Made by a program: the position numbers and the translations under genes | The notes under the pieces: generated by a model | What the model saw: only the letters and a program-made list of their open reading frames with translations | Database searches by the model: none | What the model was told of the DNA's origin: nothing | Assembly (NCBI RefSeq): GCF_041248615.1 | Contig: NZ_CP158426.1 | From: Escherichia coli | GTDB taxonomy: Bacteria > Pseudomonadota > Gammaproteobacteria > Enterobacterales > Enterobacteriaceae | Length of the DNA stretch: 64,000 nucleotides | Direction: 5' to 3' (one strand) | Shown here: one piece after another, positions 27,068 through 28,545 of the stretch | Position numbering within the stretch: the first letter of the stretch is position 1 | Layout of the letters: each line of letters starts with the position of its first letter

Positions 27068-27095
27068 GCAAGAGTAGGCTGGATAAGACGCGCCA
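27068..27095. repeat. left half of a REP unit interrupted by the IS
   Basis: flank gtaggctggataagacgcgcca joins with 28528-28545 (gccagcgtcgcatccggc) to form one REP once the IS and one copy of GCCA are removed. Confidence 0.7.
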
Positions 27096-27137
27096 TGAAC
27101 TGCACCCCAAATGTTGGACATAATCTGACATCTGAAG

Positions 27138-27668
27138 GTGCAGTTTATGAAACATTCATTTGAAGTAAAACTTGCCGCTGTAAATCATTACCTGGCTGGT
27201 CAGGCAGGCATCATTTCTACGGCAAAACTCTTTCAACTTTCTCACACCAGCCTCTCACACTGGATTAATCTTTTTCTTCTTCACGGTCCTCGGGCACTGG
27301 ATTGCAGACACAAGCGTAGCTATTCTCCTGAAGATAAACTTTGCGTGGTTCTTTATGCTCTCGGGCATTCTGAGTCTCTACCCCGGGTAGCTGCCCGGTT
27401 TAACATTCCCAGCCACAACACGGTTAAAAACTGGATAAAAGGCTACCGCAAATCTGGTAATGAGGCCTTTATCAGGCGCAGGAAGGAGAAAAGCATGACC
27501 CGTTCTGATGATACCCATGAAAACGAGGCAAACATGACGCCGGAAGAGATGAAGAATGAGCTGCGTTATCTTCGCGCAGAAAATGCATATCTGAAAGCCA
27601 TGCAGGAGCATCTCCTGGAAAAAAAGCGCCAGGAGCTGGAGAAAAAACGAAAGTCATCCGGAGCCTGA
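27138..27668 (+). CDS. IS3-family transposase OrfA (HTH and leucine zipper)
   Basis: 176-aa ORF; ends in a coiled-coil-like LRAENAYLKAMQEHLLEKKRQELEKKRK. Confidence 0.8.
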   Translation: MQFMKHSFEVKLAAVNHYLAGQAGIISTAKLFQLSHTSLSHWINLFLLHGPRALDCRHKRSYSPEDKLCVVLYALGHSESLPRVAARFNIPSHNTVKNWIKGYRKSGNEAFIRRRKEKSMTRSDDTHENEANMTPEEMKNELRYLRAENAYLKAMQEHLLEKKRQELEKKRKSSGA

Positions 27669-28495
27669 GGTGCGGACACTGCCAGTCTGACCTGTTAAAG
27701 GCTGCAGGGCTGGCCAGAAGCACGCTGTACTACCAGCTGTCACTGCAGAAGGCTAAGGACAAGTATGCTGATGTGAAACAGCTCATAGCCTCCATCTTCC
27801 ATGAACACCGGGGATGTTATGGGTACCGGCGGATCCATTGTGAGCTTCAGAAAAGAGGTCTTAAGTTCAGTGGCAAAACGGTGCGAAAACTGATGCAACA
27901 GCTCGGCCTGAAGTCTCCTGTGCGCCTGAAGAAATACCGGTCTTACCGGGGAAATATGGGACTCGCTGCAGAAAATATCCTTCAGCGACAGTTCAAAGCG
28001 GAAGCTCCCTGTGAGAAATGGGTGACAGATATCACCGAATTCAGGGCTGGCGGACAAAAACTGTACCTGTCCCCGATACTTGATTTGTTTAACGGGGAAA
28101 TCGTGGCGTGGGAAACGGCCTGCAGGCCTACAGAGGAGCTGGTGAAGCGGATGTTAAATAAGGGGCTGGAAAGCCTTGCTGAAGGGGAGAAACCGCTGCT
28201 CCACAGTGATCAAGGATGGCATTACCGGATAAAAAGTTATCAGTCCGCCCTGGCGGACAGAGGGTTAGTGCAGAGCATGTCGCGCAAGGGCAACTGCCTT
28301 GATAATGCGGTAATGGAGAACTTCTTTGGTCACCTGAAAGAAGAAATGTACTATCGCCGGGACTACAGAAATGTAGAAGAGCTGGAAAATGCCGTTAACG
28401 AATACATAACTTACTGGAATCAAAAAAGAATAAAACTCAGTCTTGGGGGACTCAGTCCGGTAGAATACCGGACTGAGCATCAAAAAGCCGGTTAA
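27620..28495 (+). CDS. IS3-family transposase OrfB (DDE integrase domain), expressed as OrfAB by -1 frameshift
   Basis: -1 frame open from the A AAA AAG heptamer (27620-27626) to the stop at 28495; the track ORF 27773..28495 is its Met-initiated part; the RNase H-like catalytic region includes HSDQGWHY and SMSRKGNCLDNAVMENFFG. Confidence 0.75.
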   Translation, partial: KKAPGAGEKTKVIRSLRCGHCQSDLLKAAGLARSTLYYQLSLQKAKDKYADVKQLIASIFHEHRGCYGYRRIHCELQKRGLKFSGKTVRKLMQQLGLKSPVRLKKYRSYRGNMGLAAENILQRQFKAEAPCEKWVTDITEFRAGGQKLYLSPILDLFNGEIVAWETACRPTEELVKRMLNKGLESLAEGEKPLLHSDQGWHYRIKSYQSALADRGLVQSMSRKGNCLDNAVMENFFGHLKEEMYYRRDYRNVEELENAVNEYITYWNQKRIKLSLGGLSPVEYRTEHQKAG

Positions 28496-28527
28496 CTGAA
28501 ACTGTCCAGGTTTTGGGGTTCAGTTCA

Positions 28528-28545
28528 GCCAGCGTCGCATCCGGC
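28528..28545. repeat. right half of the REP unit interrupted by the IS
   Basis: gccagcgtcgcatccggc; see 27068-27095. Confidence 0.7.

Follow-up and report, generated by a model that had tools for sequence, protein, structure and literature searches.

Which element separates mobB from the rrnA operon in this strain, how did it come to lie there, and do the neighbouring genes feel its presence? The DNA analysed, called the window here, is a stretch of 64,000 nucleotides of Escherichia coli (contig NZ_CP158426.1, assembly GCF_041248615.1), and all the coordinates refer to it. An initial annotation, made from the letters of the sequence, had described an IS3-family element sitting in a REP unit at this place. 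It had proposed the name IS1397 and had suspected an influence on rrnA. Taken together, the evidence leaves little doubt that positions 27096–28527 hold an intact IS1397, an IS150-like member of the IS3 family, inside the loop of the REP that separates mobB from the rrnA terminator. The element and its behaviour are already known, and RefSeq has an annotation of this very insertion. There is little consequence beyond correct annotation; the locus is a clean textbook case of REP-loop targeting by an IS3-family element.

Anatomy and identity of the element

The element is 1432 bp long and lies on the plus strand, with the 5'-TG...CA-3' ends TGAAC...GTTCA. The extent given at the outset proved to be exact, and so did the presence of imperfect terminal inverted repeats: the left repeat (IRL) reads TGAACTGCACCCCAAATGTTGGACA and the reverse complement of the right repeat (IRR) reads TGAACTGAACCCCAAAACCTGGACA, with 21 of the 25 positions matching. 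No second copy of the element was found in the window. Its parts are as follows.

27096–28527, plus strand: IS1397, complete copy (100% identity to the annotated copy in NZ_LT599825.1)
27096–27120, plus strand: IRL, left terminal inverted repeat, 25 bp, starting with TG (21/25 against IRR)
28503–28527, minus strand: IRR, right terminal inverted repeat, with the CA end (measured on the sequence)
27147–27668, plus strand: orfA, ATG at 27147, 173 aa, two HTH_28 DNA-binding domains (open reading frame and Pfam)
27620–27626, plus strand: slippery heptamer A AAA AAG in the orfA frame (frame 0), the predicted -1 frameshift site (sequence and frame)
27626–28495, plus strand: orfB portion of the OrfAB fusion, with HTH_21, rve and rve_2 (Pfam, -1 frame)

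An open stretch in the -1 frame, 27560–28495, partly overlaps orfA, which agrees with the 0/-1 arrangement that had been described. A gene with exactly the same product as orfA has been called in public assemblies, and RefSeq adds the remark ‘programmed frameshift’ to a 100%-identical copy in E. coli NRZ14408. The frameshift predicted from the sequence would yield a conceptual OrfAB fusion of 449 aa. Against the NCBIfam profile of IS3-family transposases, NF033516, this fusion scores 387 bits, where the cutoff is 160 bits, and it spans profile positions 1–369 of 369; the family first assigned is thus upheld. In Pfam, the two HTH_28 domains of the OrfA part are followed by HTH_21, rve (7e-21) and rve_2 (2.5e-20). 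The predicted catalytic residues are D295, D355 and E391 (OrfAB numbering), spaced by 60 and 36 residues, and K398 lies seven residues past E391. All the testable hallmarks of the IS3 family were found, namely the ends, the 0/-1 reading frames, the DDE core, the profile score and a duplication of 3–4 bp. From its comparison with K-12 IS150, in layout, end sequences and proteins, we read the element as an IS150-like member of the family.

As for the name, a megablast search of 5426 complete E. coli genomes showed that E. coli NRZ14408 (NZ_LT599825.1) has, at this mobB-rrf locus, a copy 100% identical to that of the window. The copies in the other 29 records among the matches listed are 99.8–99.9% identical, and all 30 of the copies among these matches are annotated in RefSeq as ‘IS3-like element IS1397 family transposase’. 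A copy in E. coli Nissle 1917, annotated as IS1397, is 99.0% identical. The name IS1397, which RefSeq uses for the 100%-identical copy, is therefore supported indirectly but strongly, through the RefSeq annotation rule together with the 99% sequence identity to the Nissle 1917 copies. The length of 1432 bp also agrees with what we take to be the published length of IS1397.

Of the 5426 complete genomes, 1707 have copies that cover 80% or more of the element. Over the 24.9 kb of positions 2000–26900, the window shows 100.0% identity to the natural isolate E. coli NRZ14408, and so comes from that strain or from a near-clone of it. The natural, non-K-12 source proposed for this DNA is in keeping with this identity.

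The REP hairpin as the target

The tetranucleotide GCCA is directly repeated on the two sides of the element, and each copy belongs to one half of a divided REP.

27092–27095: left copy of the target-site duplication GCCA, the REP apical tetraloop (sequence and fold of the empty site)
28528–28531: right copy of the target duplication GCCA (sequence)
27074–27095: left half of the split REP (GTAGGCTGGATAAGACGCGCCA), left duplication copy included (matches the K-12 empty site)
28528–28553, plus strand: right half of the split REP (GCCAGCGTCGCATCCGGC), then A + T7 (sequence; A + U7 at 28546–28553)

When the flanks are rejoined after removal of the element and one GCCA, they give GTAGGCTGGATAAGACGCGCCAGCGTCGCATCCGGC, which is identical to the sequence between mobB and rrfA in K-12 MG1655; its reverse complement is the string that the initial annotation had quoted. 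Both the flanks and the empty site thus bear out that the element entered a REP precisely, duplicating 4 bp. A comparison with the K-12 spacer had been suggested as a check; the MG1655 site is empty, so K-12 does not carry the same insertion. The rebuilt site GCCGGATGCGACGCTGGCGCGTCTTATCCAGCCTAC is of the REP or palindromic-unit (PU) type, an imperfect palindrome of about 35 bp following GCC[G/T]GATGCG...CTTATC[C/A]GGCCTAC. It is extragenic, between the convergent mobB and rrnA, and similar motifs recur within the window.

On the mobB strand, the empty-site REP folds at -21.2 kcal/mol, and on the other strand at -16.7 kcal/mol. The fold consists of an outer stem (GCUGGAU/AUCCGGC), a small internal loop, an inner stem (GACGC/GCGUC) and a 4-nt apical loop, GCCA. 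Because GCCA is placed in the apical loop, the element occupies the tip of the REP, and the bases duplicated upon its insertion are those of the loop. For comparison, 0.15% of the oriented positions in the window lie 2–6 nt after a REP-half motif, defined as GCC[G/T]GAT[G/A][C/A]G[G/A]CG with at most 2 substitutions. This low background, along with the occurrence of the same empty site in 5270 of the 5426 genomes, argues that the placement in a REP did not arise by chance.

Proposed expression and movement of the element

Two further features at the left end bear on the expression of the transposase.

27096–27147, plus strand: 5' hairpin, IS nt 1–11 paired with nt 42–52 (-23.9 kcal/mol, z -5.2)
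27096–27124, plus strand: weak promoter-like site inside IRL, TGAACT-17 nt-CATAAT, 8/12 (own scan)

According to the predicted fold, the 5' hairpin takes in the first base of the AUG and some of the Shine-Dalgarno sequence. When folded in the context of read-through from mobB, the stem persists and extends across the whole AUG. Such a hairpin may form only in the transcripts that enter from outside the element, where it would occlude the ribosome-binding site. It should, in that case, block the translation of transposase from the mobB read-in transcripts. A transcript that started at the IRL-internal site would be free of the 5' arm of the hairpin, and this site is a candidate for the native transposase promoter. 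A stricter scan of the element detected no strong or consensus promoter. In a modelled IS circle, no junction promoter was detected, the weak IRL-internal site being the only one. The stem-loop folded downstream of the slippery heptamer barely surpasses shuffled sequence (z about -2.3).

The steps of movement can be proposed by analogy with the established knowledge of the IS3 family (IS911, IS3, IS2 and IS150). A -1 slip of the ribosome at A AAA AAG would fuse the DNA-binding OrfA to OrfB, which carries the DDE catalytic core. OrfAB would then nick one 3' end (CA-OH) and join this same end beside the opposite end of the element. From the joined product, replication would generate a circle in which the inverted repeats abut. 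Finally, the circle would integrate through a staggered cut of 3–4 bp at the target chosen by the transposase, which here would be the apex of the REP palindrome.

It may be asked whether this copy can move at all or is a fixed and inert passenger. The lack of a consensus promoter in the scans of the element speaks for such a passenger, and so does a near-identical second genome, NZ_OW967178.1, which has the insertion in common, indicating that it was inherited and is not brand new. However, to judge by the letters, no damage is seen in either reading frame, in the slippery heptamer, in the DDE triad or in the two inverted repeats. Moreover, 12 matching places were counted in NZ_LT599825.1, which stands for the source genome, against a median of 1 per genome, and the copies that are 99.8–99.9% identical occupy different chromosomal positions in other genomes among the matches listed. 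An immobile copy is therefore considered unlikely, and the element is best regarded as an intact IS1397 in a natural isolate with many copies of it.

Possible consequences for mobB and rrnA

The immediate neighbours of the element and the structure that ends rrnA are listed here.

26540–27067, plus strand: mobB, the upstream neighbour, stop codon 28 bp before the element (list of open reading frames and annotation of the identical NRZ14408 locus)
about 28561–28589, minus strand: rrnA terminator hairpin, GGCCATCC-loop-GGATGGCC, then a U-tract (fold -26.2 kcal/mol, z -3.7)
28604–28719, minus strand: rrfA, the 5S rRNA gene of rrnA (NRZ14408 annotation, offset 23095, and K-12 synteny)

The position first reported, between mobB and the rrn terminator, was found to be correct. 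Downstream of the element, the minus strand carries the terminator hairpin, 5S, 23S, tRNA-Ala, tRNA-Ile and 16S, and the operon is identified as rrnA because of its synteny with K-12. The terminator hairpin, situated between the 5S gene and the element, is intact; its homologue in the K-12 rrnA trailer is the distal terminator. The trailer itself is polymorphic: in K-12 it is 169 bp longer and has two terminator hairpins, whereas there is one here. As the short trailer is also found together with an empty site in other genomes (H83), this polymorphism is independent of the insertion.

The insertion had been suspected of affecting the read-through into or out of rrnA. There are grounds for the suspicion, in that the element is about 35 bp from the terminator hairpin, the trailer of this strain has a single hairpin against the two in K-12, and transcription in the transposase sense converges on rrnA. 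Nevertheless, the hairpin and its U-tract are intact and upstream of the element in the rrnA sense, so that the rrnA transcripts should stop before reaching it. The short trailer also accompanies an empty site and so was not caused by the element. As many as 135 genomes tolerate the element at this site, in either orientation, which suggests that the site is close to neutral. In addition, the structure that was disrupted belongs to the mobB strand, being the REP hairpin followed by U7. A change in transcription into or out of rrnA is thus improbable, and the anatomy lends the earlier suggestion no support.

The likelier consequence of the IS1397 insertion is on the other side. In the empty site, the REP hairpin together with U7 is built like an intrinsic terminator, or may act as a 3' stabiliser, for mobAB, as its modelled fold suggests. 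The hairpin and U-tract that probably end the mobAB transcript are split by the 1.4-kb element. The mobAB transcript would then lose its REP and U-tract 3' end and run into the element, with no change in rRNA expression; we consider this the more likely local effect. A consensus-based promoter and terminator scanner flagged neither the rrnA terminator hairpin nor the REP with U7 in the window, presumably owing to its own stem and tail rules.

Occupancy of the site across E. coli

The state of the mobB-rrnA REP was determined across the 5426 complete E. coli genomes. The three states below together cover 5405 of them, the other 21 being outside the count.

5270/5426 (97%): REP empty
7/5426: REP with IS1397, in the orientation of the window
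128/5426: REP with IS1397, in the opposite orientation

Strain 7/2 has the element in the opposite orientation, at the same position and with the same GCCA duplication. Its copy differs from that of the window at about 22 positions (98.5% identity). The opposite orientations and the 98.5%-identical variants together indicate that there were at least two independent insertions at the same bonds of the REP loop. With 7 genomes in this orientation and 128 in the other, the insertion is useful as a lineage marker.

IS1397 had also been described as absent from K-12. This is right for intact copies: in the records of the K-12 derivatives ER1821R and XL10-Gold and of an O16:H48 strain, the single match is a relic. 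It is not right for the relic itself, which is present in the K-12 and B lineages as 65 bp of the right end (IS positions 1368–1432). The relic abuts a half REP between yhhI and yhhJ; yhhI, the ISEc1/H-repeat transposase gene, lies about 10 bp upstream of it. The relic was also sought near crl/phoE in MG1655 and not found there.

The relic means that the ancestors of K-12 and B once carried the element, and might suggest that IS1397 was ancestral at the mobB-rrnA site and that K-12 and most of E. coli lost it by precise excision. This is very improbable, given that the empty sites outnumber the occupied ones by 5270 to 135, that the two orientations and the divergent variants need at least two insertions in any case, that the precise loss would have to occur identically across the species, and that the loss of an insertion sequence together with one copy of its duplication is rare. 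The empty REP is thus taken as the original state, into which IS1397 was inserted.

REP targeting elsewhere

It has been reported that IS1397 inserts specifically into REP/PU sequences (PMC1525189; PMC3184786), and an insertion at the centre of a REP is documented in CFT073 (PMC1525189, supplement 13). Further copies were sought by scanning metagenome contigs for the opening 37 nt of the element, which gave 57 loci with 39 distinct left junctions. In these gut metagenomes, 35 of the 39 junctions abut a REP half located 2–6 nt before the element, compared with the background of 0.15% in the window. The halves at the left end of the element are heads in 19 cases and tails in 14; as both halves adjoin this end, the orientation is free.

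Clean duplications were observed in 9 of the 16 distinct full-length metagenomic contexts, five of them of 3 bp and four of 4 bp. The remaining 7 have no matching duplication, and their flanks come from different loci; in 3 of them the yhhJ-side flank is present. Such unmatched flanks are probably due to assembly through repeats, or to recombination between copies of the element. Elsewhere, IS1397 is nearly always found at the centre of a REP, flanked by duplications of 3 or 4 bp and facing either way.

The exceptions are few. One rare non-REP site (L059) is the loop of a terminator-like hairpin, with the duplication GAG. Another (L053 and L077) is a REP-like quasi-palindrome inside an Rhs/DUF6531 gene, with the duplication ACC. 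These sites, which are still palindromic, raise the possibility that what IS1397 recognises is the shape at the apex of a hairpin or cruciform, and not the REP sequence itself. At the mobB-rrnA site, the duplicated bases are exactly the REP tetraloop, and two insertions of opposite orientation used identical phosphodiester positions, both of which point the same way. We offer this reading tentatively, as one less likely than not. If it were true, mapping the insertions of IS1397 at population scale would reveal a structural code of targets, with the mobB-rrnA REP as a genuine hot spot.

Comparison with known systems

Could the element be another REP-associated insertion sequence, such as IS621, ISKpn1 or a further IS150-group element, instead of IS1397? 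In favour of this, it may be said that IS621 likewise has the REPs of E. coli as its targets (PMC3184786), and that the 25-nt IRL is common to distinct elements in Yersinia aldovae, Serratia nevei and some MAGs, so that the sequence of the end alone cannot identify the element. When 100,044 species-representative genomes were scanned with this IRL, mostly other elements with the same end were found, and true IS1397 was seen only as one degenerate E. coli copy and on one probable contaminant contig; as other elements share the IRL, the scan says little on the host range of IS1397. Against this, the whole 1432 bp, and not the end alone, is 99–100% identical to the copies annotated as IS1397. A different element is accordingly highly improbable, and the identification as IS1397 is retained in the comparisons that follow.

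IS621 belongs to the IS110 family. It has been reported to recognise a 15-bp REP sequence and to insert on the 3' side of the REP, outside the inverted repeat (PMC3184786). In contrast, the element here encodes an IS3-family protein with a DDE rve core and sits in the REP loop. IS621 is thus ruled out by both the transposase family and the insertion position.

ISKpn1 of Klebsiella pneumoniae is reported to be an IS3-family relative of IS1397 that is specific for REP/PU (PMC1525189). The title of Wilde et al. 2003, cited there, states that the transposase decides which type of PU/REP is targeted (PMC1525189). ISKpn1 is set apart from IS1397 by its description, having another host and another type of PU.

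IS150 of E. coli K-12 (insJ/insK) has the same layout, with a 173-aa OrfA and an A AAA AAG-type frameshift organisation, and its ends are related to those of the element (TGTACTGCACCC...GTTGGAC vs TGAACTGCACCCC...GTTGGAC). OrfB is 51% and OrfA only 27% identical, and there is no similarity at the nucleotide level. IS150 is, to our knowledge, not REP-specific. Tobes and Pareja scored one of the two IS150 copies in CFT073 as REP-associated (PMC1525189).

The closest counterpart is IS1397 of natural E. coli isolates, as described by Bachellier, Clement, Wilde and others (cited in PMC1525189). No difference from it was detected in the copy of the window, which shares with it the IS3-type inverted repeats, the -1 frameshift between orfA and orfB, and the insertion at the centre of a REP/PU with a 3–4-bp duplication.

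Occupied and unoccupied target sites

The REP between mobB and the rrnA terminator can also receive IS1397 in the opposite orientation. In E. coli strain 7/2, the element is inverted at the identical position of this REP, and the GCCA duplication is identical as well. The strain 7/2 copy is a variant that is 98.5% identical to the copy in the window, and the inverted state is shared by 128 of the 5426 complete E. coli genomes. The features considered here are as follows (L-numbers denote loci in other genomes and contigs).

L003 2651-4082: inverted IS1397 in the mobB-rrnA REP, E. 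coli strain 7/2 (NZ_CP023820.1)
L077:160-4012, also L053 and L082: IS1397 within a gene for a DUF6531/Rhs-type protein
L007:11339-13683: degenerate IS1397 copy in a REP, E. coli SCPM-O-B-8794
L005:2501-2565: IS1397 right-end relic between yhhI and yhhJ, E. coli K-12 derivative ER1821R
Window 41635-41750 and 22282-22350 (minus-strand coordinates), and other sites: several further insertion-free REP/BIME clusters

The insertion-free clusters of the window are potential, unoccupied targets of IS1397.

Other copies and remnants of IS1397

The DUF6531/Rhs-type gene is a rare intragenic target, and the site used there is a REP-like quasi-palindrome, GGCCGGATGGTGGCGCACC|ACCGTCACACGGGCCGGCC, with the duplication ACC. 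Several full-length copies on metagenome contigs (L027, L029, L060, L081, L082 and others) have two flanks that come from different chromosomal REPs, and these copies lack a target duplication; the yhhJ-side flank was seen three times among them. Such copies either reflect real rearrangements mediated by the IS or are chimeras that arose when contigs were assembled across the repeat. In the SCPM-O-B-8794 copy, positions 469-661 are deleted internally, and roughly 1.4 kb interrupts the element after position 1115.

In genomes of the K-12 and B lineages, 65 bp of the right end survive as a relic (95% identity to IS positions 1368-1432). The relic starts about 10 bp past the ISEc1/H-repeat transposase gene of RhsB, and a half REP (TAAACGCCTTATCCGGCCTA) comes after it. 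About half of all IS1397-matching genomes hold this relic alone, with no more of the element.

Elements with IS1397-type ends

The exact 25-nt left inverted repeat (IRL) of IS1397 was also observed at the head of clearly different elements in distant hosts (L006, L009-L011, L013-L016), namely Yersinia aldovae, an Acholeplasmataceae MAG and Serratia nevei. In Serratia, the flanks of the copies show GC-rich motifs (...CAGGGCGC... or ...AAGGGCGCG...) that may be a host repeat; the Acholeplasmataceae copies are surrounded by AT-rich DNA. A Bacteroidetes MAG holds a 46-bp mini-palindrome, TGAACTGCACCCCAAATGTTGGACACAATATTTGGGGTGCAGTTCA (L012:1374-1419), consisting of little beyond two ends of the IS1397 type. 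This palindrome may be a MITE-like remnant, or it may reflect contamination.

The rrnA trailer

Short and long forms of the rrnA trailer are both found in E. coli genomes whose REP is empty, and the difference between them is therefore not linked to IS1397. In the present strain, a distal (T2-like) terminator comes directly after the 5S gene (window 28590-28605, compared with L002:338-520, the K-12 rrnA trailer). The K-12 trailer, in contrast, contains an extra 169 bp, which comprise the T1 hairpin plus a fragment resembling 5S and are bounded by a repeat of ATTTGATGCCTGGCAG.
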